A DNA stretch of 64,000 nucleotides. Source: Acaryochloridaceae cyanobacterium VAR_48_metabat_390 (lineage in GTDB: Bacteria > Cyanobacteriota > Cyanobacteriia > Thermosynechococcales > Thermosynechococcaceae). Position numbers and translations under genes: made by a program. The stretch lies in assembly GCA_031422435.1 (NCBI GenBank), contig JANPLU010000014.1:1-64000 (forward strand), given 5' to 3'. The notes beneath the pieces were generated by a model. It saw nothing but the letters and a program-made list of their open reading frames with translations, was not told the DNA's origin and searched no databases. This document shows positions 12,138-37,722 of this stretch, piece after piece; the first letter of the stretch is position 1, and the number at the start of each line of letters is the position of its first letter.

Positions 12138-12210
12138 GATGTTTCTCCTAGCGTTAATGAATGTGGTGATTGATTGCGGGTTGAATGTTTCTTTTCATTC
12201 AGTTGTCATT

Positions 12211-13232: not shown

Positions 13233-13368
13233 AGTGGGGCAATCTGCTTGAAGGCGACCTGCGGTCAATGAAACGACTCCGGTCACACCCGCGGCAAGAT
13301 TCCTGACTCAAGGCGATAGCATAGGTGCACGTTCACAATCTTCATTCCCTCTGCACGTTCCAATCTCT

Positions 13369-14046: not shown

Positions 14047-14077
14047 TGAAGGGCGCAGCTATTGTTGAGGTTGGGCG

Positions 14078-14473: not shown

Positions 14474-14502
14474 TCGATTAATCCAGAAGACAAGGGGAAT
14501 TG

Positions 14503-16365: not shown

Positions 16366-16536
16366 GGGGTGGGGTGGCTGTCTGGATCTTTATCTTAGAG
16401 GAAGCGGACGGGGCGGGGTGTAGGCCAGCTATATGCGCTTTTTTTTGATTTCGGGCTATTCTTGTCGCTAGGATTGGGTGGGGGTGAGGTTATCTTTTAG
16501 GTTTTCGGCTGTTTTATGACGGTTAAAGGTTAAGTT

Positions 16537-19089
16537 TTGACGCGAGAGCCTTTCTCTTATGATGATGACTCGGCAGCTCTACGCTTACGTTCCCTTCCTG
16601 GTATTGCGTTTAGCCGATATCTTGATGCGGATCGTTCGGTTTTCTTTTTGTCTGAGGCCTGTCTGGCACTGACGGAGTTTTCTGCGCCAGAGTTAATCGC
16701 GCCGGCAAAGGATAGGGTGGCGTTTAATGATCTTATTGATCCACAGGATTGGGCTGATTTTCTGGAGAGGGTGGCGGTGGCGATACAGACGCGTCAGCCT
16801 TATGCGGTGGAGTACCGCATCAAGACGCGGTCTGGGGAGGTTCGATGGTTTTTGGAGCAGGGGTATGCCGCGGCGGATGGCTCCCTAGAGGGGCTGATAA
16901 CAGATGTTTCGGCGCTGAAGTTGGCGCAGAGCCAGCTTAAACTGGATGCGTTTTATGACAAGCTTACGGGGCTACCCAATCGGTCTTTGTTTTTAGATCG
17001 TCTAGCTCAGGCGGTACGGCGGCTTCAGCGCGATCTCGATTATCAGTTTGCGGTTTTATTTCTCGATTTAGATCGCTTTAAGGTCATTAATGACAGCCTT
17101 GGGCATCGTGCAGGAGATTTGCTTTTGGTGCAGGTGGCGGCACGACTGGGAGCCTGCATTCGTCCAGGCGATACGGTGGCGCGCCTGGGGGGAGATGAGT
17201 TTACGATGCTCATTGATGCGGTGCATGGCCTTGAGGATGTGATGCAGGTTGCCGAACGTATTTTGACAGATATGGCGGCGGCGTTTCAGGTAGATGAGCA
17301 CGAAATTTTTTCGACGACGAGTATTGGTATTGCGCTGAGTTTACCGGCCTATGAGAGCGCTGAGGATCTCATTCGCGATGCGGATATTGCGCTTTATCAG
17401 GCGAAGGCGATGGGGAAGGCTTGCTATGCGCTTTTTCAGCCCGGGATGCATATTCATGCGGTGGCGCGGCTGGAGCTTGAAAATGACCTCCGCCGTGCGA
17501 TCGCCAATCAGGAGTTTTGTTTACTCTATCAGCCGATTATGAGGCTCGATTCGGCTGCGCTGGTGGGGTTTGAGGCGTTTGTCTATTGGCTTCATCCGAC
17601 GCGCGGGCTGCTCGCGCCGGGGGAGTTTCTGGCGGTGGCGCAGGAGGCGGGGCTAATAGTGGCGATTGGGCACTGGGTGTTGGCAACGGCTTGTGCACAG
17701 ATGGCGCTTTGGCATCGACGTTTTCCCTCGGCACAAGGGGTCTTTTTGAGTGTCAATTTATCGAGTTCTGAACTGACGCATTCGGATTTGATTCCGGTTC
17801 TTCAGGCGGTGTTCGGCCGCGCTGGGATGAATCCTAAGCGACTTAGGATTGAGATGACGCAGGAGTTGCTGCTGCACCGGTCTGAGGCGGTGATGGCGCA
17901 GCTTCACGCGCTTAGGGCGATGGGGGTACAGCTCTGTATTGATGATTTTGGCACGGGCTTTTCGTCTCTTAGCGATTTGGACTGTCTACCGGTGGATGGT
18001 CTGAAGGTGGATCTCTCGTTTGTGGCTCGCATTGAGTCGCCTGAAATTTTGGAGATTGTTCGCACGATTTTGATGCTTGCTCAAGGGCTGGCGCTCTATG
18101 GGGTTGCGGAGGGGGTGGAGTCGGTGGCGCAGTGGGCGCAGCTGCGGGCGCTTGGCTGTCAGGTGGGGCAGGGGTTTTTGTTCGCGCCTCCTATGGAGGC
18201 GCTACAGGCGACTCGGTTTTTGGAGCGCCAGTTTGAGGGCGATGATTTTACGGCGCTGTCGATGGCGCTCCCGCGTCTTTTGATTCGGTCGGGGGAGGGG
18301 CTTTATCAGATGTTGCTTCTGGGTCGGTCGGATTGGTCGGTCGGGCGCGCGCCGGACTGCTCTATTTTTTTGCCGGACCGCATGGTGTCGCGCGCTCATG
18401 CGATGATTCTCCAGAGGCCCCGTTCTGATCAGTTTTTTTGGGTTGATCTCGGCAGTCGCAATGGTTCGTTTATTAATTTTCAGCCGGTTAGGGTACCCAC
18501 GCTTTTACAGGATGGGGATCTTATTCGCGTGGGTAATCGGCTGGAGATGCGGTTTATCGCTTCTTCAGCTTCGGCTCAGGTTCCCTCTGAGGAACGAACG
18601 GTGCTGATGCATCAGCCGTCGCTACTCTACGGGCAGCTTTGGCGCGAGGTGTTGATGGCGCTTCAGGTTTCGGTGATCTGGCTGCCAAGTGAGGTCTCTA
18701 TTTTTCACTCGCTTCGACAGATGGAGACGGCTGGGGACAGGCTACCTCACCTACTTTTGGTAGATCTACTGACGGTCAATAATGCCGATTTTGCGTCCTT
18801 TTTTGAGGCGTTGGCGGTTTCTTTTGAGCCGATTCCGGTTCTTCTCACGATGCCGGAGTTGTCTAATGATTTTCCGGTTCTCCGAGAGCGTGCCTGTGCG
18901 GCGGGGGCGGTTGATTTAGTTCCTCTTTTTCGGTTGGTGGGTTCTGATTTTCTGGTCTATCGAGATGCGCTGGCACAGAAGGTGGTGGGGGTGGGGGCAG
19001 CGATGGGGGTGACGATTCTACAGGAGGATGCGATGATGGCGGCGGCGGCGGCGCTTCGGACGGTCCTTCGGAATGAAACACTTTTCTAG
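16537..19089 (+). CDS. PAS-GGDEF-EAL-FHA signalling protein
   Basis: PAS_3-like N-terminus, DLDRFK, RPGD I-site, GGDEF, DDFGTGFSSL, FHA GR...SRAHA...DLGSRNGS; start uncertain (TTG). Confidence 0.88.
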   Translation: MTREPFSYDDDSAALRLRSLPGIAFSRYLDADRSVFFLSEACLALTEFSAPELIAPAKDRVAFNDLIDPQDWADFLERVAVAIQTRQPYAVEYRIKTRSGEVRWFLEQGYAAADGSLEGLITDVSALKLAQSQLKLDAFYDKLTGLPNRSLFLDRLAQAVRRLQRDLDYQFAVLFLDLDRFKVINDSLGHRAGDLLLVQVAARLGACIRPGDTVARLGGDEFTMLIDAVHGLEDVMQVAERILTDMAAAFQVDEHEIFSTTSIGIALSLPAYESAEDLIRDADIALYQAKAMGKACYALFQPGMHIHAVARLELENDLRRAIANQEFCLLYQPIMRLDSAALVGFEAFVYWLHPTRGLLAPGEFLAVAQEAGLIVAIGHWVLATACAQMALWHRRFPSAQGVFLSVNLSSSELTHSDLIPVLQAVFGRAGMNPKRLRIEMTQELLLHRSEAVMAQLHALRAMGVQLCIDDFGTGFSSLSDLDCLPVDGLKVDLSFVARIESPEILEIVRTILMLAQGLALYGVAEGVESVAQWAQLRALGCQVGQGFLFAPPMEALQATRFLERQFEGDDFTALSMALPRLLIRSGEGLYQMLLLGRSDWSVGRAPDCSIFLPDRMVSRAHAMILQRPRSDQFFWVDLGSRNGSFINFQPVRVPTLLQDGDLIRVGNRLEMRFIASSASAQVPSEERTVLMHQPSLLYGQLWREVLMALQVSVIWLPSEVSIFHSLRQMETAGDRLPHLLLVDLLTVNNADFASFFEALAVSFEPIPVLLTMPELSNDFPVLRERACAAGAVDLVPLFRLVGSDFLVYRDALAQKVVGVGAAMGVTILQEDAMMAAAAALRTVLRNETLF

Positions 19090-19091
19090 TT

Positions 19092-19123
19092 AAAAAGCAC
19101 CCCTTGATGAAGGGGTGCTTTTT
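19092..19123. terminator. Bidirectional intrinsic terminator
   Basis: AAAAAGCACCCCTT-GATG-AAGGGGTGCTTTTT between convergent genes. Confidence 0.85.
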
Positions 19124-19138
19124 AGTCGGTTGATGGCT

Positions 19139-19894
19139 CTATTTTTTACGGTATGGAACCATGCGTTCGATGTCGATATTGTACGAAGAGACGTTCTGGG
19201 GCTGGTTTCCGGCTGGTCGGATGCTCTGGGCCATGCCTAAAAATAGGGATGGATCTCCGGTTTTGGCTTTTTTGTCGGGCGCACGGTAGGTTTTGACGAT
19301 GCTTTGCCAGATGATCTGGGGGAAGCCTAGTTTGCTTCTATGATAGCTATCGTAACGCGGCGATTTTAGGTTGAAGGGCGTTTCGCCGATGCTTTGGCTG
19401 GGCAATACCCGACGGCGTTGATACGGGACGATGCTATCTCCGAAGTTTTCTTGGTATTCGTCGCTATTGAGCAGTTCGTCAATAAACCCTTTAATGCCTT
19501 TGGTGGCGACGACAATGGACCACGCAATTTTTTCTCGTTCGCTATACACATCACGACCTAGCAGGCGTTGGACGCTCTGTTCTACGAAGCGATAGTTACT
19601 GTTAAGGTCATAAAAGCTACGTTTATAGGTATCTGACAGCGCTAGACCACGAATGAATTCACGTACGCTTATCTGATTATTACGCAGCTGTGATTCTAAG
19701 AATGGTTCCCGGTCTGATGCAAAGGCATGAAAATACATCTGCCGATAGCACGCTTCTATTAAGTCTCCCATGTCCCCAGGACTTAACAGGTTATCTACAC
19801 TATATATCCGAGGTCCTTCGTCACTGCCGCTCTCATACCCTGATACACGTACGTTCTGGCTTCGAGGTGCATACTCTATTCTTGGAATACTCAC
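19139..19894 (-). CDS. cpcG: Phycobilisome rod-core linker CpcG
   Basis: [32 protein letters not shown]; hydrophilic C-terminus (not CpcL). Confidence 0.93.
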
Positions 19895-20010
19895 AACTGC
19901 TCGCTCCTGATTCCTGCTGATCCTAATTCAAAATTTTACGCATCTAATGCACTTTGCAAAACCACCCTTTACACTCTTTAATGCAAATGCTCAGATCATA
20001 CAAAACAGCC

Positions 20011-22076: not shown

Positions 22077-23783
22077 CTATTTTTTGACGCCTTCGGGCTT
22101 AACGCCGTCGGGAATCAATCCATTGAAAGGCAAAGACTTGACAATGCTCAAAGGCAGCGGGAAACGGCTTAACGCTTCAGCCCCTGCGGGACTCAAAAAG
22201 ACCTGATTGCTCTGTTGACCTCTCAAGTAAGCCTGCATAAACACCAAGCTCAACACGTTGACGTAAGACCGTGCTAATTCCGGTGATGGGCCTTCTAATC
22301 CTTTGATTTGAGACAGCCCTTCAGCCGCTTGACTCGAGGGGGCAATGGTTGAGAAATGATTGCTGTTTTCAATTAAAACCAAATAGCGCTGGAGCGCTTT
22401 TAGTTGAGAAAACGGCTGGATTTGCTCTGGTAATGCCGGAGCGACAATATCTCGCCCACCCGCGACGATCATGACAGGCACTTTAATCTGAGCTAAGCTA
22501 TCTGCGCCAAAAATACCGCTGGTAATGGGGTTAATGGCGATCGCCGCTTTAATTCGAGCATCTGTCAATGCGTACTGAGCAGGGGGCAGCCGCAGCGCCT
22601 GACACTGAAGCCCCAAAGAAATATTGAGGGTCGTATTAAGCTGTTGCCCGCAGTTTTGCTGCAGTGTTTTGAAACTTAGCGGTGCCCCCGCAACCGCCAG
22701 ACTGGTATAGCCCCCAAAAGACTGACCAATAATGCCCACCTCATCAAAATTAATCTTGCCCTGGAATCGTACATCGGTCTTTGCCAAAGACTGCAAAGAA
22801 TCTAGCAGAAACTGGATATCCAGGGGACGATCTAAAAACTCTAAGGGTGCCGCCACCTCTCGCCCACGCCCCTCCAGCAGCGACTGGAGCTGCTGCTTAC
22901 TGCTGCCCGGATGTTCTGGCACCGCAACAGCAAAACCATAGGAGGCTAAGTGCTGAGCAAGGTAGGCATAAGACTCGCGATCTGAATTTAGCCCGTGGGA
23001 AATAACCACCAAAGGCTGAGGCGAATCGGTAACGGGCAAGTAGACATCAGCGACAAATTGACGCGCCTGAGCGGTGTACTGCAACCTTTTTGGAGTGATG
23101 TCCTCAAGTGTCAGCGCGATCTTGTTCCACTTCAAAGTACCGGGCTGCTTAAGCTGCTCCAGGTTTTTTGAGTCAGAGACAGACAAAGGAGAAGCCTTAG
23201 ACAACGCCTGAATTTGCCGAGTAACCGTATTTCCTTGCTTTAAGAACTGATTGGCGGCACTCACCAGCCCCACAATTTCTTCAACATTGACCACCACATC
23301 ACGGGTAGGGTACTGACGCAAAATGGTCAGCGGCGTTAAGCCCTGAGGATCTGAGGCTGCCAATACGAGGGCAGATCGCAGCGCATAAAAACTGCCCTGA
23401 CCGCTTCCGGTTTGAATGAGCCGACTGACGCGACTTAGCAGAAGCTCTCCTGGCGGTGAGTAAAAAAACTGGCTAATCGCCACCGGAGACAGGTCTACTT
23501 TCTGCTGTAGCCCTTCTCGCAGTTGCGCTAACTGTTCAGGCTTGACTAACCGCGCATAGGAAACCAAATCTTCGGTCAAAACGCCGTCACGGGCATAGGT
23601 TTCAAGGGCGCGTACCGAAATCGAACGCCCTAAAATGGAGTAGTTAAACAAGATGCGCTCCGCTGCGATCGCAGCGCCACCACCACTATCGCCGCTACCG
23701 CCCCCCAATTGCCCCAGAGAGAGAGCCATCACGACGCCCCAGCGAATCCAGCCTCTTCTCGAGTCACTATAAAAAGACAGCAC
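22077..23783 (-). CDS. DUF1400 alpha/beta hydrolase
   Basis: AAERI N-terminus, SHG, EHPGS, GQSFGGYT nucleophile elbow, HFS. Confidence 0.88.
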   Translation of the reverse strand: MLSFYSDSRRGWIRWGVVMALSLGQLGGGSGDSGGGAAIAAERILFNYSILGRSISVRALETYARDGVLTEDLVSYARLVKPEQLAQLREGLQQKVDLSPVAISQFFYSPPGELLLSRVSRLIQTGSGQGSFYALRSALVLAASDPQGLTPLTILRQYPTRDVVVNVEEIVGLVSAANQFLKQGNTVTRQIQALSKASPLSVSDSKNLEQLKQPGTLKWNKIALTLEDITPKRLQYTAQARQFVADVYLPVTDSPQPLVVISHGLNSDRESYAYLAQHLASYGFAVAVPEHPGSSKQQLQSLLEGRGREVAAPLEFLDRPLDIQFLLDSLQSLAKTDVRFQGKINFDEVGIIGQSFGGYTSLAVAGAPLSFKTLQQNCGQQLNTTLNISLGLQCQALRLPPAQYALTDARIKAAIAINPITSGIFGADSLAQIKVPVMIVAGGRDIVAPALPEQIQPFSQLKALQRYLVLIENSNHFSTIAPSSQAAEGLSQIKGLEGPSPELARSYVNVLSLVFMQAYLRGQQSNQVFLSPAGAEALSRFPLPLSIVKSLPFNGLIPDGVKPEGVKK

Positions 23784-23864: not shown

Positions 23865-25544
23865 TTACCAAAGTGCATTTTTAATGCGGTCTAAGTCTTC
23901 AATCGAAAGAGACGAAACGCCGCGCAGCAGAAGCGGCTGAATACTTTGAGCCTCGATTGAAGCTGGATTTAAAAAGATTGCCGTATTAGGCTGTTGCTTT
24001 ACATAGGTTCTAAAAAATGCAAGCCCTAACGCCCGCATATAGATCCGCGCCACTTCTGGGGTTCTGCCAATAAGCTCTTTGGGCGTGACAAACGCACGCT
24101 CGGCAGGCTGAAGTTCATCAATGGTCGAAAAATGAGTCGCGCCATCTATTAGAATAAGGCGCTTTTCAATATTAGGGAGCCAGGTAAACGGCTCTATCTG
24201 CTCCGCTAACGGCGGCGTGATGCTATCTGAAGTGCCTGAAATTATCATCACGGGTGCCTGAATGCTCTTAAAGCCCTCTACACCAAACACACTGCTGGTG
24301 ACTGGATTAACGGCGATCGCCGCTTTAACTCGAGTGTCCCTAAAGCTGTAGTCTTGTTTGGGCAACTGCTGTGCCTGACACTGAAGCAATAGCGACAGGT
24401 TTAAGCTTTGAGCAAACGACTTATCACAGCCCTTCTGAAGGCTGTCAAAATTGATTTTTGCCCCTACCAAGGCCAGCGCCGTATAGCCCCCAAAGGACTG
24501 TCCCATCACCCCCACCTGATTGATATTAATCCGTCCTTTAAACGGCCCATCCATTTGATTCAGTCGGGTTAGCTCATCGAGCAGGGATGAAACATCCAGA
24601 GGGCGATCAATAAACTCCTGTGGGTTTGACACATCATCGGCCTTGCCATCCAGCAGCGCACTGATCTGGCGTTCAGAACTGCCCGGATGTTCGGGCACCG
24701 CTACCACAAAGCCGTGAGAAGCCAAATGCTCTGCAAAATACTTAAAGGAAGTCCGTCCTGAACCCAAACCATGAGAAATAACGACCACGGGCATGGGCAC
24801 TGCGCGTGCTAGACGAGGCAGGTAAATATCTGCGCTAAACTCACGGGGAGAAGCAGACAGCGGCTGCATACGCTGAGGCCGACTGTCCGTAAGCGTCAGT
24901 GGAATAACATCCCAAGTAAACGAGCCAGACTTTCGTAACGCGACTAAATCTGTTACTCGTGCCGCTTTGGTGGCTTGCGCCGCTAGATCTGAGCGCTGCT
25001 GAACCAGAGCAATGGACGTATTGGTCTGCTGAACCAGTTTCCGAATGGCCTGAAACACGTCCAACCCTTGAGCGATATCGAGCTGAATCCCAGAATCGGG
25101 ATAATTCCGCAGCAAGCTTAAGACCGTTAATCCCTGGGGATCGGTAGAGGCTAAAATCATTGCGGAGCGCAGCGCCTGTAGGCTCGAAACCTGAGATTTC
25201 GCCTTGATGAGGGTGCTGGCGCGCTCCAGCATCTTTTCACCAGTGGGCGTATACAAGAACTGAGAAATCACATCGCTGGACAATTCAATGCGCTTTCTGA
25301 GCGCTTCTCTTAGCTCCTGAAGTTGCGTAGGCTTCAAAAATTTGGAATAGGTTTGCAGCGTGGGCGATAAACGACCTTCTTTGGCATAGGTTTCTAAGTC
25401 TGAAACCTGAAGGGTAATTTCAAGGAATCCATAGCTGGCATAGACCCGCTCCGCTGCATTAGCCGCAGCGGGAAGCAGTAGCCCCAAGGCAAAGCTGCCA
25501 AGAGTAGACCACAAACGCATTCGTCGTTTAGATAATTTCTGCAC
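23865..25544 (-). CDS. DUF1400 alpha/beta hydrolase (tandem paralog)
   Basis: AAERV, SHGLGS, EHPGS, GQSFGGYT, HFS. Confidence 0.88.
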   Translation of the reverse strand: MQKLSKRRMRLWSTLGSFALGLLLPAAANAAERVYASYGFLEITLQVSDLETYAKEGRLSPTLQTYSKFLKPTQLQELREALRKRIELSSDVISQFLYTPTGEKMLERASTLIKAKSQVSSLQALRSAMILASTDPQGLTVLSLLRNYPDSGIQLDIAQGLDVFQAIRKLVQQTNTSIALVQQRSDLAAQATKAARVTDLVALRKSGSFTWDVIPLTLTDSRPQRMQPLSASPREFSADIYLPRLARAVPMPVVVISHGLGSGRTSFKYFAEHLASHGFVVAVPEHPGSSERQISALLDGKADDVSNPQEFIDRPLDVSSLLDELTRLNQMDGPFKGRININQVGVMGQSFGGYTALALVGAKINFDSLQKGCDKSFAQSLNLSLLLQCQAQQLPKQDYSFRDTRVKAAIAVNPVTSSVFGVEGFKSIQAPVMIISGTSDSITPPLAEQIEPFTWLPNIEKRLILIDGATHFSTIDELQPAERAFVTPKELIGRTPEVARIYMRALGLAFFRTYVKQQPNTAIFLNPASIEAQSIQPLLLRGVSSLSIEDLDRIKNALW

Positions 25545-25989
25545 ACGCTTCGCCTAGAGAATTTTGGGTACGTAGATTTGAATTCCTGCTGATAATCTTG
25601 TCAGATTTTAGGAGAGTAGCGATATCCGTAGAGCTTTAGGCTGATTACTCATTCCTCAAGCTTTGATATCTACGGAGAAAGATCAGGTTTGTGAGCAATT
25701 GTGAAGGGTAACAATAATTAATAATGCCATGACTTATTGACAATCATAATTTAATTCCAAGCATTTACAACCTTTAAGGGTGAATTTAGGCGACAATCTG
25801 GATATATGAACGTAAATTAGTAAATATTAGGAGAATGCTCAGAGGTGTTGAGGATCCTGCACTCATCCATGCCCAAGCTATTGGAGCAGATGATCAACCT
25901 CTTGTCTAATGCTGGCAGTGTGATTCAGATCATAAGTCTATCAATGCAGACGTTATAAAGTTGTGAGTTAAAGGTAAACGGTAGCTGCT

Positions 25990-26580
25990 ATGACCATTCA
26001 AGAGTCTAAACAACAGAGGTCGCATCAAACCTTAGCAGAGCTGATTGAATCTCTGGAGCTATCGAATTTACAAAAGCAGTACATGCAGTCACGCTGGCTA
26101 GATCAGCTGTCTTACATGAGTAGGCGTGCGCGCGAAACCCGTAATTGGTATTACCGTCTGCGGATAACCGCCATTGTTGGCAGTGTGGTTGTGCCGATTC
26201 TGCTAGGTGTGCAACAGACCAATTCTAAAGATTTTCTACGTTGGGCAACTATTGGACTCAGCGGAGTTGTGGCAGTGAGTGCGGCGGTAGAGGAGTTTTT
26301 TCATTTTGGCGATCGCTGGCGGCATTTTCGACAGACAGCAGAGGCATTGAAGGCTCAAGGCTGGCAATTTTCACAGTTGGGTGGACTTTATGGCGAATAT
26401 CCATCACATCAGGCTGCATTTCAAAGTTTCACGACTCATGTTGAGACATTGCTTCAGCATGAGAATGAGGTATTTGTTTCGGAAGTGGTGAAGGAGAAGC
26501 CCAAAGAAAATTCTGTACCTGACAGAGACAAGTCCGCACAACATACTTCGTCCCAAAAATCCGATGCCTCAAATCTTTAA
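25990..26580 (+). CDS. DUF4231 / SLATT-family two-TM protein
   Basis: RWLDQ, YYRLR, two TM helices, WRHFRQTAEALK, F..HVE.LLQHEN. Confidence 0.82.
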   Translation: MTIQESKQQRSHQTLAELIESLELSNLQKQYMQSRWLDQLSYMSRRARETRNWYYRLRITAIVGSVVVPILLGVQQTNSKDFLRWATIGLSGVVAVSAAVEEFFHFGDRWRHFRQTAEALKAQGWQFSQLGGLYGEYPSHQAAFQSFTTHVETLLQHENEVFVSEVVKEKPKENSVPDRDKSAQHTSSQKSDASNL

Positions 26581-26624
26581 AGATAAATTTACAACAGCAT
26601 TCTTACTTGAGGAAAATTACATCA

Positions 26625-28103
26625 ATGAAATTCGAGAATGATATTTTCATTAGCTATACTCATGATGACAATTTAACTTTTAACAAAAAAGATACTGGGT
26701 GGATAGACGAATTTTCTCAGTGCTTATTAAAGCGAGTAGCTCAGGTCTCTGGAATAAAGCCAAAGATATGGAAAGACGAAAAACTAAAAGGAAATGATTA
26801 CTTTGATGACACAATCGAAGATGAAATTGCTAAATCAGCCATTTTAATATCTATTTTTTCACCGCGCTATTTGACATCTGAATGGTGCCTTCGAGAACTC
26901 CAAGAATTTTGCAGTAAGTCTGGGGATATCAGGGTTGGTAATAAATCGAGGTTATTTAAGATAATCAAATATCCTTTAGAACATAAGAGTAACTTTCCAT
27001 CGGAGGTTCAAAGACTTTTAGGGTACGAATTCCACACAAAGACTCCTCCTGGCCCTCCAATAGAATTGACACCTTCAATTGAAGAGTATCAGAAAGACTA
27101 TACAAGGATTTTGACTGACTTAGCTGAAAGTATTAAGGAGGTATTAAAATTACTGCGGTCAGATAATAGCCAACTTACATTACCCAATCAATCAACAGGT
27201 AGCACAATTTACTTAGCTAAGACAACATTTGATCTTAAAGAGGAGCGTGACAAAATTCGACGTGAACTTCAGCAGTTTGGTCATACAGTGCTTCCCGATG
27301 AGGATTTGCCAGATTATAGTCCTGCGTTTGAGGAAGCTGTTCAACAAAGTTTAGAGCAGTCTCAGTTATCAGTTCATTTACTAGGGGAGCGGTATGGACT
27401 CGTCTTGAGTCCTTCTGGGCTGTCAATGACGGAATTACAGTACAAGCTTGCTGTTGAGTGTGAGCAAATCAATCCAGATTTTAAGCACTTGACTTGGTTC
27501 CCTACGGATTCTCAAGCAAAAGAAACTCGACAGGAAGAATTCATTTCAGAAGTACAAAACGACTCTGAATATTTACGAACTAGTCTTGAAGAACTTAAGA
27601 CAATTATCCAAGATAAGTTAAAACCCAAAACAGAAACTCAGGAAGCTTCTACGTTGTCTAAAATCTTTTATAATCAGCCAATATACATTTATCTTATTCA
27701 CGATCAAAGTGATAAGGTTGAAGACATTTCCCCTCTCTACAACTATTTCATGGATTTGCCAAACTTTGAAATCAGATTACCTGATTTTTCCGGCAATGAA
27801 GCAGAAATACGTCAGGCTCACATAGAAAATTTAAAAAGCTGTGATGCAGCCATTTTATATTACGGGAAAGGCAACCTTGCTTGGCTTCAGAGCAAGCTTT
27901 CAGGGTTTAGCAAGGTTATGGGCTACGGGCGAGAGCAGCCAATGCTAGCACAGGCTGTTTATATCGCCGAACCCCAAGCGCCTGAGAAAAACCTATTTAG
28001 AACAAAACAGGCGCTTGTGATTAAAGACTTTGATGAGTTTTCTCCAGAGTTACTAAACGATTTTCTGACGCAAATTGAGCAAAACCTAGGAGAGATAAAA
28101 TGA
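26625..28103 (+). CDS. TIR-domain protein with additional DUF4062-like and TIR-like domains
   Basis: DIFISYTHDD, IWKD, SPRYLTSEWCLRELQEF; middle IYLA...DLKEERDKIRRELQQFG; C-terminal IYLIHD...CDAAILYYG. Confidence 0.85.
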   Translation: MKFENDIFISYTHDDNLTFNKKDTGWIDEFSQCLLKRVAQVSGIKPKIWKDEKLKGNDYFDDTIEDEIAKSAILISIFSPRYLTSEWCLRELQEFCSKSGDIRVGNKSRLFKIIKYPLEHKSNFPSEVQRLLGYEFHTKTPPGPPIELTPSIEEYQKDYTRILTDLAESIKEVLKLLRSDNSQLTLPNQSTGSTIYLAKTTFDLKEERDKIRRELQQFGHTVLPDEDLPDYSPAFEEAVQQSLEQSQLSVHLLGERYGLVLSPSGLSMTELQYKLAVECEQINPDFKHLTWFPTDSQAKETRQEEFISEVQNDSEYLRTSLEELKTIIQDKLKPKTETQEASTLSKIFYNQPIYIYLIHDQSDKVEDISPLYNYFMDLPNFEIRLPDFSGNEAEIRQAHIENLKSCDAAILYYGKGNLAWLQSKLSGFSKVMGYGREQPMLAQAVYIAEPQAPEKNLFRTKQALVIKDFDEFSPELLNDFLTQIEQNLGEIK

Positions 28104-31100
28104 CGTTAGCGACAGAAACACGTCTGAATCCCTTCCCTGGACTACGATCTTTTAAGACAAAAGAAGAAAATTTATTTTTTGGGCGCGAAAAACAAGTCAA
28201 TGAGCTGCTACAAAAACTTCGATGTCATCGCTTTCTGGCAGTTGTGGGTACATCAGGAAGTGGTAAGTCTTCTTTGGTGAGAGCTGGTCTTTTACCTGCC
28301 TTGCATAGCGGTTTTATGGTACAGGCTGGCTCTAGTTGGCGTATTGCTGTTTTATGTCCTGGGAATGCGCCCATCTATAATTTGGCTAAGGCTCTTAATA
28401 AACCAGAAATCTTAGCAAATAATGGCGACGAAGAGGACGAAGATACCCGAGCTTTGGTCATTGAAACGACGCTTGAGCGGGGAGCATTGGGCTTAGTGGA
28501 GGTAGTTAGGCAAGCTCGATTGTCTGCATCAGAGAATTTGTTGATTGTGGTGGATCAGTTTGAAGAGCTATTTCGCTTTCAGACAGCCCCTAATCGAGAT
28601 GATGCCGAAGAGAAAGCAAGTGCTGAGGAAGCAAGTGCTTTCGTTAAGTTACTCCTAGAGGCAGTAAAACATCCAGAGATATCTATTTATGTAGTGCTGA
28701 CGATGCGGTCTGAGTTCTTGGGCGACTGCGCTCAGTTTAGAGATTTGCCGGAGACTATCAATGACAGTCAATTCCTAATTCCACGAATGACTCGCGATCA
28801 GCTGCGTTTTGCCATTGAAGGGCCAGTAGCAGTCGGTGGCGCAAAGATTACACCACGATTGGTCAATCGGCTGCTGAATGATATGGGTGAACACCCCGAC
28901 CAATTACCCATTTTGCAACATGCGCTGATGCGAACTTGGGACTACTGGATGGACGCTGAGCCGTTTGACGGACTAATTGACGTTCAGCATTATGAGGCTA
29001 TTGGTGGTGTAACTACGGCATTATCAAGACATGCAGATGAAATTTACGCCGGATTAAGCAATGATGATGAACGAGAAATTGCTGAAACGTTGTTCAAACG
29101 TCTAACCGACAAAGGGCCTTACGGTCGTGAAATCCGTCGCCCTAGCAAACTAAAGGAAATATGCGAAGTAACAAATGCAGCTCAAGAAAAGGTTATTAGA
29201 ATTGTTGATAAATTTCGGGCACCAGGATGCTCATTTTTAATGCCGACGCTCTCTGAAGCATTGACACTAGAAACGACGTTGGATATTTCCCATGAAAGCT
29301 TGATGCGAATTTGGGATCGCTTACAAAACTGGGTAGAGGAAGAACGCCAGTCAGCACAAATTTATCGGCGATTGGCTGAATCTGCGTCTTTATATGAGCA
29401 AGGTAAAACTGGTTTATGTATAAACCCTGAATTAACAATCGCATTAAATTGGCTTAAAGACAACCATCCCAATAAAGCTTGGGCAAAACGGTACAATCAG
29501 CACTTTGATAAAGCAAGTGAATACTTAGAAGCAAGCGGGAAAGCTCATGATACAGAAATCAAAAGACAGGAACAGGATAAAGAAGCAAAACTAAAGCAAA
29601 AAGAAGAAGAGGTTAGAGAGCAGAAACGTATCAATCAGAGACTAAAACTCTATGGTGCTAGTGCGATCACAGGTTTAGTCGCTATTGGATTAGGAATATT
29701 TACATTTTTTCAAGCACGGTCTGCTGTTGAAAGTACGACCAACACGCTTTGGCAATCATCAAATGTGTTGTATGAAACCCGCCCTGAGCGCATTGATTCG
29801 TTAACTTATGCTTTAGGAGCCAAAGAATCCCTAGACTGGGGATTCTTTAATTGGCTACCCTTTAAAGACCTAACAATTAGAGATCAGGTATTAGGGAAAC
29901 TCTTGCAATCAGCGTATATTGTGAGAGAGTTTAATCGACTTGAACGCCATAATGCACCAGTCAACAGCGTTAGCTTTAGCAAAAATGATGAGATCATAGC
30001 CTCAGCTAGCGATGACAGAAATATTATTCTATGGCATAAAGATAATAGTCCGCCCCAAATTTTAGAAGGACATTTTAGTAGAGTTAATAGCGTAAGTTTT
30101 AGACCTGATGGACAAAGAATAGCTTCAGCAAGTGCTGATGGAACCATAAAGATTTGGGATCTAAGCGGGAACACATTACAAAGTCTTTCTAAAGAAAAAC
30201 AAAATAGCTCAGTATCTAGCATTAGTTACAGTATTGACGGGAAAATGTTAGCTTCTGGCAGCGATGATAGTAGCGTAACATTGTGGAAGGATGTTAACGG
30301 AAAATTTAATAAGCCCTTTAAAACGCTTCAACACAAAGATAGAGTTAAAGCCATGAGTTTTAGTCCAAAGGGGAAAAGCTTAGCTTCGGTGGGATGGGAT
30401 GGTGTTATCAAAATCTGGGATCTCAATGGAAATCTCATCAAGTCACGAGATCTCAATATTAGAGCAGACAACCCTAAAGCCACTCCATCAGGAAGAAACA
30501 CACAAAGACAGAGATTAACAAGCGTCAGTTTCAGCCCTGACGGCAAAACTATTGCCGTGGGAAGCTTAGAGAAATTAGTTATGATTTGGGACTTAAAAGA
30601 TAACTCTATCAAAACATTAAATGCCCATACAGATAGAGTAATGAGTGTTAGCTTCAGTCACGATAATAAATATCTTGCGTCATCAAGTGCTGACAACACA
30701 GTTAAAGTATGGAAACTTAAGTCTCAAGCAGTAGATATGAGTCTGACTGTCGAAGGAGTCACCAATGCTCAATTTTCTCCTACGGGGATATTAGCAACAA
30801 CGGAATTAAACAAAAAGATTAGATTATGGAAACTACCAGAGATATTTCCTAATTCTCCTATACATAATCAACTAGCTCCAAAGTCAATTATAACAAGTGA
30901 AGATAATAGTATCATCAGCATGGATTTAAGTCCCAATGGCAAAATAACAGTCAGTGGTGAAGTTGACATTAAAACAAATAGCAGCAAAATTATTTTCCGA
31001 GATTCACAAACTAAGGCTTCGCTTCTTTCATCAAACTTAAAGTGTGGGGCAATAGTAAATGTTCAGTTTTCTTCTAAAAACTCATCCATAGCTGCAATTG

Positions 31101-31903
31101 CCGAAAACTGCCCAGAGACCAGTAGACAGTTTGAATCAGCGAGAAAAAGCTTAATAGAGATCTGGGATTTAAGTCAAAGAAGACTTATTGCTAGTCGAGT
31201 TCTTGAAAATGAAATTAATGATTTTAATTTTAGTGAAGATGGAAAGGAAATCGCAGTTGTTTCCAATAAATCAAGCTCAACTCATTCTAGCCACATAACT
31301 CTTTGGAGCTGGGAGGGTGATAAATCAATCCTGTCTGTCCCAATAAAAGACTTAGAGGTAAGTACCGCTAGTTTTAGACCTCGTCATAAAGAACTAGTAA
31401 TAGGGGGTAAAGATGGAAAGATTTATCTTTCAGACTTTAAAGGTAAAACAAATAAATTACTTGAAGGACATACTGATGGGATTACTAGTCTTCAACTAAG
31501 TTCCGATGGTAAAACTCTGGCATCTGGTAGCTACGATGCAACAATTCGATTGTGGAATTTAGACAATAAAAACCTAAATAGAATTCTTGGAAGTCACAAC
31601 ACTTCTATTACTAATTTAAATTTTGGTCAAAATAAACGATGGCTTGCTTCTTCAAGCTCTGATGGAATGATTAAAATTTGGAGCTTAATAGATCAACAAG
31701 ATCCTTTGCTAGGCACCTTACAAAAAAATAGCAATTCAATCCTTGCCTTAAAGTTTAGTCCTGATCACAAATCCTTAATTACGGCTTCTAACAGTGAGCT
31801 ACTGTCTTGGGCTACTGATCTAAATAAGTTGCAGAAATCGACTTGTCAATGGTTACAAGATTACTTTGAGTCTAGCAAGCATCAGAACACTTGTCGCAGA
31901 TAA
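28100..31903 (+). CDS. nSTAND1 NTPase with TM helix and WD40 repeats
   Basis: NPFPGLRSF, FFGRE, GTSGSGKSSLVRAG, VVDQFEELF, LPILQHAL, SHESL; TM near aa 515-538; more than 10 WD40 repeats; ATGA overlap with the TIR gene. Confidence 0.93.
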   Translation: MTLATETRLNPFPGLRSFKTKEENLFFGREKQVNELLQKLRCHRFLAVVGTSGSGKSSLVRAGLLPALHSGFMVQAGSSWRIAVLCPGNAPIYNLAKALNKPEILANNGDEEDEDTRALVIETTLERGALGLVEVVRQARLSASENLLIVVDQFEELFRFQTAPNRDDAEEKASAEEASAFVKLLLEAVKHPEISIYVVLTMRSEFLGDCAQFRDLPETINDSQFLIPRMTRDQLRFAIEGPVAVGGAKITPRLVNRLLNDMGEHPDQLPILQHALMRTWDYWMDAEPFDGLIDVQHYEAIGGVTTALSRHADEIYAGLSNDDEREIAETLFKRLTDKGPYGREIRRPSKLKEICEVTNAAQEKVIRIVDKFRAPGCSFLMPTLSEALTLETTLDISHESLMRIWDRLQNWVEEERQSAQIYRRLAESASLYEQGKTGLCINPELTIALNWLKDNHPNKAWAKRYNQHFDKASEYLEASGKAHDTEIKRQEQDKEAKLKQKEEEVREQKRINQRLKLYGASAITGLVAIGLGIFTFFQARSAVESTTNTLWQSSNVLYETRPERIDSLTYALGAKESLDWGFFNWLPFKDLTIRDQVLGKLLQSAYIVREFNRLERHNAPVNSVSFSKNDEIIASASDDRNIILWHKDNSPPQILEGHFSRVNSVSFRPDGQRIASASADGTIKIWDLSGNTLQSLSKEKQNSSVSSISYSIDGKMLASGSDDSSVTLWKDVNGKFNKPFKTLQHKDRVKAMSFSPKGKSLASVGWDGVIKIWDLNGNLIKSRDLNIRADNPKATPSGRNTQRQRLTSVSFSPDGKTIAVGSLEKLVMIWDLKDNSIKTLNAHTDRVMSVSFSHDNKYLASSSADNTVKVWKLKSQAVDMSLTVEGVTNAQFSPTGILATTELNKKIRLWKLPEIFPNSPIHNQLAPKSIITSEDNSIISMDLSPNGKITVSGEVDIKTNSSKIIFRDSQTKASLLSSNLKCGAIVNVQFSSKNSSIAAIAENCPETSRQFESARKSLIEIWDLSQRRLIASRVLENEINDFNFSEDGKEIAVVSNKSSSTHSSHITLWSWEGDKSILSVPIKDLEVSTASFRPRHKELVIGGKDGKIYLSDFKGKTNKLLEGHTDGITSLQLSSDGKTLASGSYDATIRLWNLDNKNLNRILGSHNTSITNLNFGQNKRWLASSSSDGMIKIWSLIDQQDPLLGTLQKNSNSILALKFSPDHKSLITASNSELLSWATDLNKLQKSTCQWLQDYFESSKHQNTCRR

Positions 31904-31936: not shown

Positions 31937-32260
31937 CTATTTCGGGTTTGCGATATGTGTGGGTTCTGGACTAGGCTCTGGAGAAGAAAACAAGCATTGT
32001 GCACCGTTCGTTTTAGCGCTACTTAAGTTAGCACTATTTATATTTTTAGCCCCACATAAGTTGGCACCCATTAAGTTAGCACCTCTTAAGTCTGCACCTG
32101 ATAGATCTAAACCTCTCAAATCTGCACCACTTAAATCACATTTTTGGCAAGAGCCTGTATCCTTCAACTGTCTTAAGTGTGTTTGATTTCCGGCTATAAC
32201 TGGAAGAAAATTACCGAATGCCATCCAAAAAATAGATGTAAAAAAAACAAAAACTTTCAT
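31937..32260 (-). CDS. Secreted pentapeptide-repeat protein
   Basis: Signal peptide, [11 protein letters not shown] repeats. Confidence 0.85.
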   Translation of the reverse strand: MKVFVFFTSIFWMAFGNFLPVIAGNQTHLRQLKDTGSCQKCDLSGADLRGLDLSGADLRGANLMGANLCGAKNINSANLSSAKTNGAQCLFSSPEPSPEPTHIANPK

Positions 32261-32399: not shown

Positions 32400-32672
32400 T
32401 TATTGATGGATCGAGCCATCGGGCATAGTAGCACCTTTAAGCTTGGCACCACTGAGATTAGCATTTCTGAGATTGGCACGACTGAGATTGGCACCTTCAA
32501 GATTTGCACCACTGAGATTAGTGCCACTGAGATCAGCGCCACTAAGATCACATCCTGGACAAGAATTAGTATCTATCAAGCGTCTCAACTGCTCAGGATT
32601 ATAAGCCTGTACTGAGTTCGACAAAAAAACAGTACTTGACAAGATTACACAGGCTAATGGGTTAAGCTTCAT
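32400..32672 (-). CDS. Secreted pentapeptide-repeat protein
   Basis: Signal peptide, [11 protein letters not shown] repeats, ATMPDG end. Confidence 0.88.
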
Positions 32673-35127: not shown

Positions 35128-36813
35128 TTAGTCAATCGAAACCCCTCGAATGGTCGTGGGGCGGCGTTGACCTACCAGAGGCGCTTGGGCTGCCACGCGC
35201 TCCCGCTGGCGATAAATCAGAAAATGCTCTTGCCATAGAGCTGGCGCATTTAGCGTTTCGCCGCCGTGGTCGGTTAGGCGCTGTCGCACCTGACACAGCA
35301 CAGGGGTATTCACACACAGCCCAGAGATAATGACCTGGCCTTTGGTCAGAGCAGGTAGCTCCTTTAGTAAATCGCGTCCCGCCGCTTCTACGCCGTACTT
35401 TAGGCTTTCTTGGTCAACGGGGTTAACAATCCGCATGACAAACTGGCTCATGCACTGAGACAGCACATCAGAGTCTAGCTTGCCAGGGCGCTGGGTAATT
35501 AACCCAACCCCTAACCCAAACTTGCGCCCTTCGCTCAAAATCGTGCGGATGACGGCCTTACAGCGCGAAGGCTCGTGGGCAGGGGCAAAGCGATGGGCTT
35601 CTTCTAGCAGCACAAAGACGGGGTAAGGCAGATAGTTTTCGTCGTCTGGGTTGAGCTTTTCCTTGACGGTGTTCATTCTGGCCTGGTTGGTTTGCCGCAG
35701 CAGCGCTGCGCAAATCACCTGCTGTTCATCTTGGCTAATCTCGTTCATTTGCAGCACTGTGACCTGACCTGGCTCAAACAGATCTCTCGGACCCAAGTGT
35801 TCAAAGGCATGGAAATATTCCGACAGCTCCAGTTTGCTCAGCTTCCAATCTAAGGCATCCGCAGAAGAACCCTGCTTTTCGTTGCCGTTGTCATCCTGCA
35901 CAATATCCGATTGAAACACTGCATGGCGCAGGTCATTGATATCCCAGCGATCGCCCTTCTTAGACTTGCGCATGAGGTTAAAGGCTTTGTTGAGAATCGA
36001 CTGCTGCCGCTCACTCATTTCCGGCAGTAGCGCCATCACGTCCCCGTAGTCGAGCGACGAGTAGCGAATGCGAATGTCATTAGGATGCAGAATCTTCACC
36101 TGAGGCTCATAGCCATCCTCGCCGCGAAACGCCGGATTATTGCGCAGTCCTTCTAAGGTGCCGTACTCTCCGTGAGGGTCAAAGATCATCACCGCTGCCC
36201 GATTTTGGGGGCGCATGAGTTCTTCAATCAAAACCCCTGCGGTGTAAGACTTCCCAGAACCCGTCCCAGCCAAAATAGCCATGTGGGTACTCACCAGCTC
36301 TTTAACATCCAGAGAAATAGGTACAGCTTTCCCTTCCCTTAGCAGCAAATGCCCCACATGGGCAGAACCCACCGCACCTACAGGCTTTTTGTTCAAAATT
36401 CCGGTTAAAGAGACATCATCTGCCAGAAACACCTTTGCACCTGGCTCTGGCGGACGGCGGGGGTTCATAAATCCAAGGCTGGGGTGGAAGTAGCCAATCA
36501 CCTCCACTGCCACCTCATAGATTTCAGGGCTGGGGTACTTAAACCCAATCAGCGCGGCGATGGTGCTAGGGTCTACTTCGCTATCGGCAAAGATGCGGTC
36601 AGGCAGGTGGTCAACCAGGTGGCAACCCGAAATTTTGCCCAGAATATTGAGGGTGTCTCCTTCAGCATTCTCGACGCGGTAGTAAACAAACTCGCCAATT
36701 TTGATGTGGTCAGTCTGGGCTGTAATAAAGACGTACTGGTTGCCGCTTTCCCCTGGCCCTTTGACCGTGCCGATAATGTGCATTGTGTCTTTAGGCAGAC
36801 GGGTATGCGCCAT
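35128..36813 (-). CDS. HerA/FtsK-family ATPase (DUF87)
   Basis: HAS-barrel-like N-terminus, AGTGSGKSY, FDPHGEY, EEAHRF, EGRKFG, TQRP. Confidence 0.9.
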   Translation of the reverse strand: MAHTRLPKDTMHIIGTVKGPGESGNQYVFITAQTDHIKIGEFVYYRVENAEGDTLNILGKISGCHLVDHLPDRIFADSEVDPSTIAALIGFKYPSPEIYEVAVEVIGYFHPSLGFMNPRRPPEPGAKVFLADDVSLTGILNKKPVGAVGSAHVGHLLLREGKAVPISLDVKELVSTHMAILAGTGSGKSYTAGVLIEELMRPQNRAAVMIFDPHGEYGTLEGLRNNPAFRGEDGYEPQVKILHPNDIRIRYSSLDYGDVMALLPEMSERQQSILNKAFNLMRKSKKGDRWDINDLRHAVFQSDIVQDDNGNEKQGSSADALDWKLSKLELSEYFHAFEHLGPRDLFEPGQVTVLQMNEISQDEQQVICAALLRQTNQARMNTVKEKLNPDDENYLPYPVFVLLEEAHRFAPAHEPSRCKAVIRTILSEGRKFGLGVGLITQRPGKLDSDVLSQCMSQFVMRIVNPVDQESLKYGVEAAGRDLLKELPALTKGQVIISGLCVNTPVLCQVRQRLTDHGGETLNAPALWQEHFLIYRQRERVAAQAPLVGQRRPTTIRGVSID

Positions 36814-36879: not shown

Positions 36880-37722
36880 TTAGGCTTTGCCGTCTTGCTC
36901 AAGGCAGTGTTTTAGAAATGTCTCATAGCACTTGGCATACTCTGGGTTACGCTGTTTCGCCTTGCCAATCGCGGCGATCGCCGCTGGTAATTCACCCATC
37001 CGAAAGTGAACATAGCCCAAGCCATAGTAGCTCTTAGCATGCTGATCGTTAAGGGCAATGGCACGCTGGAACGCGGCGATCGCGCGTACATAGTCCTGCT
37101 GATGAATCAGCGATAGCCCCATACCGTAATAAGCAAAGACATCTCTCGGGTCAAGGCGCGCCGCCTTCTGAAACGCCGCAACGGCACTTATAAAGTCTTG
37201 GCTCCGGTAAAATACGGCACCTAGGTTACAGAAGAGCGTTGACTGAGTAGGGCGCATCTCAATTGCCTGTCTTAGCAATGCTGCCGCCTCTGAATACTGA
37301 GCAAGATAATACTGCGCGACACTCAACCCATTCAGCGCCTCAATAGATTTTTTTTCTCTTTGCAGTACGCGCTTAAAATTATCTGCCGCCCCTTCAAAGT
37401 TTTTCTGCTTCAGCTTAATAAGACCGCGCTGAAGCCAAACTTGAGTCCAAGATTGATCAGAGTCGGACTGGACATAGGTGGTCGTTGAGGACAGCGGCAT
37501 TTTTAGGGTGGACGCAGGCTGAATAGCTGTGAAGTCCTCAAGATCTTCTGTCATTGGGTGAACCAGATCATCGCCCTCAGACGGTCGCTTATTGTCGAGG
37601 TGGTTTGCTAAAGCTAAGCCTTCTTTGAATAAGTGGGCTGTATTAACCAAAGCATCAGGGTTTTGGCTTTGCATGACTAGGTATTGTGAGGAGGGTTTAA
37701 CGTCTTGTGCTAGATTTTCCAT
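36880..37722 (-). CDS. Tetratricopeptide repeat protein
   Basis: About five TPR-like units (NLGAVF, AYYGMG, SYYGLG). Confidence 0.85.
   Translation of the reverse strand: MENLAQDVKPSSQYLVMQSQNPDALVNTAHLFKEGLALANHLDNKRPSEGDDLVHPMTEDLEDFTAIQPASTLKMPLSSTTTYVQSDSDQSWTQVWLQRGLIKLKQKNFEGAADNFKRVLQREKKSIEALNGLSVAQYYLAQYSEAAALLRQAIEMRPTQSTLFCNLGAVFYRSQDFISAVAAFQKAARLDPRDVFAYYGMGLSLIHQQDYVRAIAAFQRAIALNDQHAKSYYGLGYVHFRMGELPAAIAAIGKAKQRNPEYAKCYETFLKHCLEQDGKA

Follow-up and report, generated by a model that had tools for sequence, protein, structure and literature searches.

Several described bacterial systems join TIR domains to STAND ATPases or to small membrane effectors. In TIR-ParA (FxsC/FxsT), for instance, the upstream gene encodes an active TIR together with an inactive TIR, and the downstream gene a ParA fused to STAND modules, nSTAND1 included, or a type-II receptor with a single transmembrane (TM) helix and extracellular sensors, as far as the available part of the preprint describes it (bioRxiv 10.64898/2026.10.19.760177). 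Type VII Thoeris comprises the TIR protein ThsB and the SLATT effector ThsH, uses the canonical signal cyclic ADP-ribose (cADPR) and counts Cyanobacteriota among its phyla, while type VIII Thoeris employs an effector with a TPR sensor domain (available part of bioRxiv 10.64898/2025.12.03.692087). The locus that we analyze here shares features with these designs. It lies in a stretch of 64,000 nucleotides, called the window throughout, that comprises positions 1 to 64,000 of the forward strand of contig JANPLU010000014.1 (GCA_031422435.1) from Acaryochloridaceae cyanobacterium VAR_48_metabat_390, and it consists of three genes: one for a SLATT membrane protein, one for a TIR protein that we name TIR3, and one for an nSTAND1 ATPase with C-terminal WD40 repeats. 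An earlier annotation made from the letters and their open reading frames (ORFs), the sequence-only reading, had proposed the three as a candidate for an undescribed immune or conflict system.

Further precedents concern the separate parts. The name nSTAND1 goes back to Kaur et al. 2021, who gave it to STANDs that have N-terminal effector-associated domains (EADs) or effectors and FGE-type sensors (PMC8195603, excerpted text). SLATT genes occur beside TIR and PNPase effectors in GTPase-centered systems (Kaur et al. 2020, PMC7159879), and the two-gene SLOG(LSDAT)-SLATT systems predicted by Burroughs et al. 2015 are cited in the same paper, again according to the portion of its text available. 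DUF4062, a further component of the locus, is presented in the accessible parts of three preprints as a TIR-like NADase with an essential Glu (bioRxiv 10.64898/2026.05.01.722283, 10.64898/2026.09.04.749371, 10.64898/2026.06.25.731849), and the Glu mutants reported there are KpSwz E97A, PsAvs2 E108Q, Vulcan E98Q, VstA E103Q and TEP1 E1008Q.

The three ORFs of the window are co-oriented on the + strand, at 25990-26580 (196 residues), 26607/26625-28103 and 28100-31903 (1267 residues). The longest frame of the second gene begins with TTG at 26607, and the ATG at 26625 (MKFENDIFISY) agrees with the N-termini of homologues; starting at that ATG leaves a gap of 44 bp between the SLATT and TIR3 genes. 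The junction between the TIR3 and STAND genes is an ATGA overlap at 28100-28103, as direct reading of the letters shows. The tight linkage, shared orientation, gap and overlap originally proposed are thus confirmed from both ORFs and letters (Table 1).

Compared with the described systems, the locus displays kinship and departure alike. As in TIR-ParA, going by the available part of that preprint, a predicted active TIR is followed by inactive TIR-type domains in the upstream gene, the downstream gene encodes an NTPase receptor, and a caspase-type domain is in some cases joined to the N-terminus of the effector; the first domain of TIR3 also matches FxsC_Nterm, but with 44 bits against a cut-off of 130. 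Unlike in TIR-ParA, there is no ParA in the downstream protein, whose nSTAND1 starts at residue 11, and the predicted inactive domains are a DUF4062 bearing a Gln at the catalytic site and what may be its diverged copy; a STAND joined through a TM helix to a putatively periplasmic WD40 region is not mentioned in the part of the preprint at hand. Like type VII Thoeris, the locus has its TIR gene beside a gene for a small SLATT protein, here co-oriented and 44 bp away, and by analogy a TIR product that acts on a SLATT pore would be the expected logic. Thoeris, however, makes do with two genes, and its TIR protein is also the sensor of infection, whereas here the TIR is paired with a predicted membrane STAND receptor, TIR3 carries two extra, presumably inactive TIR-like domains, and the PADLOC match to ThsB1 is marginal (1.7e-4).

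Comparable mixtures apply elsewhere. Like the nSTAND1 conflict systems of Kaur, Iyer, Burroughs and Aravind (eLife 2021, PMC8195603), the STAND protein belongs to the PF20703 clade, and the family shows varied sensors (WD40, FGE-sulfatase) and TIR, caspase and kinase effectors; unlike those systems as the excerpted text presents them, it has a bare N-terminus, a separate effector gene with no shared EAD, and a TM helix between NTPase and sensor. The DUF4062 match and the tie to STAND/NLR-like ATPases recall the DUF4062/NIR NADases (Swarozyc KpSwz, PsAvs2, Vulcan, Vesta, Evangelion and TEP1, as reported in the portions of those preprints available), from which TIR3 domain 2 departs in the replacement of the catalytic Glu by an invariant Gln. 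The SLATT protein falls in the DUF4231 subfamily that in cyanobacteria usually follows an LSDAT_prok SLOG gene, as in SLOG-SLATT, but neither a SLOG gene nor a remnant was found here, and the neighbor is TIR3, downstream rather than upstream. Avs/AVAST is set apart by the missing N-terminal effector, the TM helix between NTPase and repeats, and the lack of any PADLOC Avs match, and CBASS by the CD-NTase (SMODS), which was found neither in the three genes nor in the 11 flanking ORFs scanned.

PADLOC returned no system-level match for the trio, and text searches of the literature on nSTAND1, DUF4062 and SLATT/TIR/STAND yielded no description of a TIR-DUF4062(Gln)-third-domain protein with a TM-nSTAND1 receptor, although supplements to the preprints could list such a pair. 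The original remark that the circuit could not be matched to a named system needs correction in part: parts of the locus already bear names, TIR plus SLATT as type VII Thoeris and an active TIR with inactive ones beside an NTPase receptor as the TIR-ParA/FxsC theme, while the exact combination was not found described in the accessible portions of these sources. Lacking ParA, and not being a self-sufficient two-gene Thoeris, the system of the window fails a defining feature of each of the two preprint systems.

What is conserved is a pair of genes. TIR3 stands for a full-length family of about 500 residues; a search gave 605 proteins with E <= 1e-3 among 7999 candidates scored, and the 120 relatives listed, with 38-66% identity over 67-100% of the query, come, among other groups, from cyanobacteria, Acidobacteriota, Verrucomicrobiota and Poribacteria. 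Scanning a single genome for each species retrieved at least 526 stretches with a TIR3 relative, of which the best 80 served as loci L001-L080 (11 from Bacteroidota). An nSTAND1 homologue adjoins TIR3 in 75 of these 80; it follows TIR3 in 73 and precedes it by about 1 kb in two (L004, L024), and the remaining five (L001, L041, L042, L048, L060) stop at a contig edge before any partner. The junction of TIR3 stop and STAND start is mostly a 4-bp overlap or a gap below 30 bp, with L006, L008 and L075 as exceptions. The pattern NPFPGLRPF is matched by 59 of 65 partner STANDs and a one-residue variant of it by five of the other six, with one unplaced; in the placed partners the motif or its variant sits within about 20 residues of the start codon. 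Pairwise distances of TIR3 and of the N-terminal half of the STAND protein correlate at r = 0.87 (45 loci, 990 pairs), a value that none of 999 permutations reaches; the correlation comes partly from shared descent, yet it shows that both genes travel together. From the pairing, the junction spacing and this correlation it follows that the conserved unit is the two-gene TIR3-nSTAND1 module, and not the trio that the sequence-only reading had put forward, SLATT being upstream in only five of the scanned loci.

Within cyanobacteria the pair is sporadic. TIR3 is present in three of 401 sampled genomes, the window's own included, and was found in none of four genomes of the same family; the GC content drops to 0.36-0.43 over the trio from about 0.48-0.55 in the flanks. 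Together the GC drop and the sporadic distribution mark the trio as accessory in its genome. A midpoint-rooted FastTree phylogeny of TIR3 tentatively groups the window with four loci in one cyanobacterial clade, two of them with SLATT (L002, L003) and two without it (L010, L006). Two loci hold more than one such pair: a Verrucomicrobia single-cell contig has two divergently oriented TIR3-STAND pairs side by side (L057:1705-12013), and at L049:1357-10835 a second, very divergent pair of TIR-like and STAND genes comes straight after the first.

An AlphaFold2 model of TIR3 (mean pLDDT 83.3, pTM 0.44) divides the protein into three domains, each of alpha/beta type, with approximate limits 5-180, 194-332 and 353-491, and its Foldseek matches include the TIRs of RUN1, RPP1, SARM1, SPARTA and MyD88, with RUN1, SARM1 and SPARTA at E values of 1e-5 to 6e-4. 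The first domain is a TIR by Pfam (TIR_2 at residues 7-96, 2e-13, 51.3 bits against a cut-off of 28; TIR at 6e-10, 39.7 against 21.3), and its match to NCBIfam FxsC_Nterm, at about 2e-11 and 44.1 bits, stays below the cut-off noted above. Its WCLRE-L aligns with WCLDE-L of RUN1 (chain 6o0w_A), such that E91 falls on a RUN1 Glu which we take, by our own count of the chain numbering, to be the published catalytic E100. All of the 82 sequences compared, that of the window and 81 from the loci, share S85, W87, C88 and E91, a figure to be read with the retrieval patterns for L001-L080 in mind, which contain DIFISY and S-x-WC and under-sample relatives without these motifs, Glu-less ones included. 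The WCxxE glutamate that the sequence-only reading had pointed out is accordingly present, and the N-terminal TIR, as the sole domain to retain its catalytic Glu, is predicted to be the catalytic one.

The second domain, by comparison of residues, appears to be a dead enzyme. It matches Pfam DUF4062 at residues 195-276 (1.5e-14; 54.4 bits against a cut-off of 24.7), and the solved KpSwz chain 10wc_A, an E97A construct, aligns to residues 195-277 with its Ala on Gln272. To control the register, canonical DUF4062 sequences were drawn from genomes of the cyanobacterial phylum, and 15 of 15 carry Glu as residue S+5 in S-x-T-x-x-E; at this position Gln is found in 81 of 82 TIR3 sequences and a gap in the remaining one, and the neighboring E270 is present in only 32 of 82. 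A search of the PDB with a domain 2 profile lost the KpSwz match, and a short TEP1 fragment as query gave chance matches only. Since Gln replaces the Glu that is essential in NIR/DUF4062, the domain is predicted to be catalytically inactive and no NADase, in line with the loss of NADase activity and defense in E>Q mutants of NIR/DUF4062 (available part of bioRxiv 10.64898/2026.09.04.749371).

For the third domain, which spans roughly residues 350-492, Pfam gave no match. Its model is a 5-strand/5-helix alpha/beta fold (strands 353-359, 381-384, 408-413, 442-447 and 464-467; pLDDT about 90); hhalign relates it weakly to domain 2 (E 2.8e-4, probability 41%, 97 columns) and found nothing against domain 1, and Atlas neighbors labeled DUF4062 or TIR score only 0.82-0.87 and serve as leads only. 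The label TIR/DUF4062-like is thus plausible for the modeled domain but not firm. Of the original description of TIR3 as a TIR with two further TIR/DUF4062-like domains, the identity of domain 2 is borne out and that of domain 3 is plausible; with Gln in its DUF4062 domain, TIR3 is predicted not to comprise three enzyme domains.

TIR3 also occurs in fusions. CHAT (PF12770) is joined to it in six of the 120 listed proteins (P0018, P0020, P0029, P0033, P0048 and P0054, about 690-760 residues), at the N-terminus in P0018, and a Ser/Thr kinase in four others (P0123-P0126, 920-926 residues), N-terminally in P0123. P0121 (969 residues) fuses an N-terminal AAA-TPR module to TIR3; it was considered as a direct fused form of the TIR3-STAND pair and rejected, its ATPase being no relative of nSTAND1 by BLASTP.

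The partner protein opens with its NTPase. Pfam nSTAND1 (PF20703) covers residues 11-435 at 2.7e-104 to 2e-103 (347-350 bits against a cut-off of 27.1), and residues 1-560 match only nSTAND1, AAA_16, nSTAND6 and nSTAND3, with no ParA and no effector domain. Nine residues precede NPFPGL, and, as first described, no N-terminal effector was found. Walker A (GTSGSGKSS, 28247-28273) and Walker B (VVDQFEE) are both present, and G50, G53, G55, K56, S57, D152 and E155 of Walker A and hhhhDQFEE are invariant across 26 STAND sequences. In the C-terminal region Pfam WD40 scores 5e-86 over eight stretches, and several propeller families match within residues 609-1250.

Between these parts lies the feature that alters the picture. 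A hydropathy scan reveals one strong hydrophobic segment right after the NTPase (residues 519-537, Kyte-Doolittle 1.86), and an equivalent TM helix exists in 60 of 65 partner STANDs, the five without it being three cut by contig ends and the short L007 and L044. For the 59 partners whose chain continues for 120 residues or more past the helix, Lys plus Arg were counted in the 15-residue flanks: the mean is 6.3 before the helix and 2.6 after it, and the N side has more in 57 of these 59 and the C side in none. Because the NTPase requires cytoplasmic NTP, and given this positive-inside bias, the protein is predicted to be a type-II single-pass protein, N-in and C-out, with its repeats outside the cytoplasm. 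Regions past the helix were listed for 46 of the 59: 37 have WD40-type propellers and five no family, and the domains that substitute elsewhere include an FGE-sulfatase (L026), TPR (L053), TPR with murein endopeptidase M74 (L062) and, in L031, CHASE2 with another four hydrophobic segments behind it, an arrangement familiar from extracytoplasmic CHASE2 sensors. Such extracytoplasmic types agree with placement of the repeats outside. Moreover, in 26 of 80 loci, from Acidobacteriota, Bacteroidota and one metagenome-assembled genome of Deferribacteres, the next same-strand gene past STAND encodes a TonB-dependent receptor (Plug and barrel). The helix, which the sequence-only reading had overlooked, shifts the picture from an intracellular Avs-like sensor to a predicted envelope-spanning receptor; judged by its sequence features, the STAND protein is not a cytoplasmic Avs-like sensor.

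Other genes recruited beside the pair point to an ADP-ribose-type small molecule: TPR-S proteins lie near it in L007, L030 and L056, an ADP-ribosylglycohydrolase in L052 and L059, and in 10 Bacteroidota loci a protein with TrkA_N, described further below; SLATT genes belong to the same group. The pairing, the membrane topology, the enzyme residues and these neighbors linked to nucleotide signals together suggest that SLATT, TIR3 and the nSTAND1 ATPase act as an outside-in alarm of the envelope, a tentative reading to which we assign a probability of roughly 0.45. Starting from what is observed, namely gene order, domains, strict pairing, a conserved charge-biased helix, the invariance of E91 and the Gln of DUF4062, we infer the steps of a mechanism that go beyond architecture and residue conservation. 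The STAND protein would sit in the inner membrane as a type-II protein, with its NTPase in the cytoplasm and its WD40 propellers in the periplasm. An extracytoplasmic cue, possibly phage attack on the envelope or some other envelope perturbation, and in other phyla possibly relayed by the adjacent TonB-dependent outer-membrane receptor, would cause the NTPase modules to oligomerize. The oligomer would recruit and cluster TIR3, with the two inactive TIR-like domains as docking or multimerization modules, and the clustered N-terminal TIR would cleave NAD+, leading to depletion, to an ADP-ribose-derived messenger such as cADPR, or to both. In this cyanobacterium, the SLATT pore encoded next door would open in response to the messenger; the membrane would depolarize, and the attacked cell would stop growing or die. 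The circuit from sensor through TIR to membrane effector that the sequence-only reading sketched is compatible with the evidence, as SLATT and nucleotide-signal-linked genes do recur, but that reading was wrong about the unit, the site of the sensor and the number of active domains.

A more general version, in which Toll-like-receptor logic is assembled from NLR parts, with a periplasmic-sensing STAND (wired to TonB receptors elsewhere) that signals through a cADPR-type TIR messenger to a SLATT pore or another membrane effector, seems somewhat unlikely. If this version were true, surveillance of the envelope could operate before, or independently of, entry of the invader's genome, and would do so in at least 526 species-level genomes. 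Known bacterial STAND and NLR-like defense proteins sense phage proteins inside the cell, and an outside sensor with TIR output would add an envelope-level mode. The family could then serve as a bacterial analogue of receptor-to-TIR signaling that is open to testing, with the window as a compact three-gene version whose plausible read-outs are the SLATT pore, loss of NAD+ and a cADPR-type molecule. DUF4062 with its invariant Glu-to-Gln exchange would likewise exemplify how an enzyme domain of immunity can be turned in nature to a noncatalytic role.

A number of points weigh against the envelope alarm. SLATT was not found in most loci, and the usual partner of SLATT proteins of the window's type is another gene, LSDAT_prok SLOG, directly upstream in 10 of 27 ORFs scanned. 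The flanking genes are mostly housekeeping genes, and PADLOC, as mentioned, recognizes no system. The topology of the STAND protein is based on a hydropathy scan and charge counts, and the invariance of E91 was counted among motif-selected relatives. The N-terminal half of the STAND protein is 44-65% identical across phyla, which is unusually conserved for an immune sensor, and the fixed envelope operons of Bacteroidota and Acidobacteriota fit housekeeping signaling as well as defense.

The place of SLATT bears directly on the first alternative, in which the TIR3-STAND module works alone through NAD+ depletion by the N-terminal TIR, and SLATT is an independent neighbor, for example a survivor of a SLOG-SLATT system, that does not respond to the TIR product. 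The identity of the lead gene is as first proposed, with Pfam DUF4231 at 6e-27 (94.5 bits against a cut-off of 24.7) and NCBIfam SLATT_1 at 2.3e-31 (108.5 against 41); only segment 57-75 passes the Kyte-Doolittle threshold, and a less hydrophobic stretch follows at about 85-103. The rarity of SLATT beside the pair implies that the pair does not need it, and many TIR defense proteins do deplete NAD+ (available part of bioRxiv 10.64898/2025.12.03.692087). Close homologues of the window's SLATT occur in 31 of 401 sampled cyanobacterial genomes, its own included; at 28 of 29 SLATT loci in the other genomes there is no TIR3 within 1.5 kb, the sole case nearby being G242/L083 (59% identity, about 1 kb), and two of the cyanobacterial SLATT loci have TPR-S proteins in place of LSDAT_prok.

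Nonetheless, orthologous SLATT genes (e-70 to e-72) occupy the same position, directly upstream of TIR3 on the same strand, in the Nostocales loci L002 and L003, and one lies near TIR3 in G242, though TIR3 is only about 47% identical; that SLATT was kept despite such divergence indicates that the arrangement has persisted. SLATT was also recruited anew in four loci of other phyla: divergently, with a TPR-S protein, in L007; about 1 kb upstream and again just downstream of the pair in L023; as the C-terminal part of a 514-residue protein directly upstream in L039; and 2.5 kb downstream in L056. By a rough estimate, chance would place SLATT in far fewer than one of 80 such loci. The 44-bp gap and shared orientation also speak against mere adjacency, as does the failure of tblastn to find an LSDAT/SLOG remnant upstream of SLATT in the window, L002, L003 or L083. 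We therefore consider an uninvolved SLATT unlikely, and the trio is a lineage-specific elaboration of the TIR3-STAND pair. As a separate observation, some SLATT/DUF4231 proteins of cyanobacteria are fused to C-terminal Peptidase_C39_2 and/or chitinase-class-I (Glyco_hydro_19) domains (L102:1-2085, L110:1486-3531, L109:643-2058), fusions that join the membrane domain to predicted cell-wall or peptide-processing enzymes.

A second alternative dispenses with immunity. Here an outer-membrane receptor would act through the periplasmic propeller on a STAND switch, and the TIR parts would be a scaffold or a maker of second messengers for envelope physiology; STAND and TIR parts would then be seen to serve ordinary envelope signaling. 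The TonB-dependent receptors fit such a device, as does a protein of about 650 residues directly upstream of the pair in 10 Bacteroidota loci, which has two N-terminal hydrophobic helices, TrkA_N and a weak RyR match (2TM-TrkA_N). So do the high conservation of the cytoplasmic parts across phyla and the finding that no known defense gene directly adjoins the trio, a HerA-like ATPase 3 kb away aside. The invariant catalytic Glu of the TIR, on the other hand, speaks against it, as do the sporadic occurrence in cyanobacteria and the island-like GC; fusions of TIR3 to CHAT, Ser/Thr kinase and AAA-TPR recall the swapping of effectors in conflict systems, and abortive-infection systems employ SLATT and TPR-S proteins, both partners here, as effectors. 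On balance a non-immune role looks unlikely. With regard to the 2TM-TrkA_N protein, an identity as K+ channel was dropped, as a GYG-type filter was seen in none of five sequences. Ahead of its gene, three Bacteroidota loci have an AAA (PF00004) gene (L058:4572-5951, L073:4427-5833, L077:4565-5917), and the conserved operon of these loci has at least five genes: AAA, 2TM-TrkA_N, TIR3, TM-STAND and TonB-dependent receptor.

The weakest alternative, a cytoplasmic Avs-like sensor split over two genes whose WD40 repeats bind a phage protein inside the cell while the helix is a tether or is buried, has the Apaf-1/Avs-like order of STAND and WD40 in its favor, together with the typically cytoplasmic location of eukaryotic WD40 PF00400 (PMC13581612, available part), but is made highly improbable by the recurrence of a single helix at the same place with strong positive-inside bias, the CHASE2 and murein endopeptidase substitutes, the adjoining outer-membrane receptor genes and the lack of an Avs match noted above.

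Table 1 Features of the SLATT-TIR3-STAND locus, in window coordinates
Feature	Coordinates	Strand	Basis
Non-coding stretch, presumed promoter region of the trio	25545..25989	+	445 bp, no ORF of 80 residues or more
SLATT/DUF4231 small membrane protein, 196 residues	25990..26580	+	Pfam DUF4231, NCBIfam SLATT_1
TIR3 domain 1, a TIR that keeps its catalytic Glu (E91, codon 26895-26897)	26625..27164	+	Pfam TIR_2, TIR
TIR3 domain 2, DUF4062/NIR in which Gln272 (codon 27438-27440) takes the place of the catalytic Glu	27186..27644	+	Pfam DUF4062
TIR3 domain 3, alpha/beta, no Pfam family, weakly DUF4062-like	27666..28103	+	AlphaFold2, hhalign
STAND cytoplasmic part: nSTAND1 (residues 11-435) and charged juxtamembrane helix region	28100..29653	+	Pfam nSTAND1
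Predicted single TM helix, residues about 519-537	29654..29710	+	Kyte-Doolittle 1.86
C-terminal WD40 beta-propeller region, about 700 residues, predicted extracytoplasmic	29777..31903	+	Pfam WD40

The SLATT and TIR genes are each present as a single copy in the genome (3.70 Mb, 136 contigs). A HIP1 motif, GCGATCGC, lies inside the SLATT gene, and a CpeS bilin-lyase gene is found nearby, both in keeping with cyanobacterial DNA. Two DNA metagenome runs from a single study contain the stretch, and no RNA run is listed for it. A promoter scan at the trio did no better than shuffled sequence (17 found, 15.5 expected), a terminator scan likewise stayed at chance level, and no tRNA was found in the window. 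The flanking genes are only 42-48% identical in four genomes of the same family, without synteny there.

Among individual neighbors, the HerA-type ATPase (35128-36813, - strand; Pfam DUF87 2.8e-50, PADLOC HerA 7e-45) may serve either defense or housekeeping; what comes next on its strand is a TPR gene (36880-37722) and neither a SIR2 nor a DUF4297 partner. Immediately ahead of the trio stand two tandem paralogous genes for DUF1400 plus alpha/beta-hydrolase proteins (22077-23783 and 23865-25544, - strand), and two to four such copies were counted in every one of the four genomes from the same taxonomic family. Just past the STAND gene, two small ORFs with pentapeptide repeats (31937-32260 and 32400-32672, - strand) sit where the GC content is still low (0.435 at 32-34 kb) and may belong to the same acquired segment as the trio. 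Further away, a stretch of about 8 kb, at about 12000-20000 of the window, has a GC skew of +0.16 to +0.27, a GC content of 0.52-0.57 and an AT skew down to -0.25.

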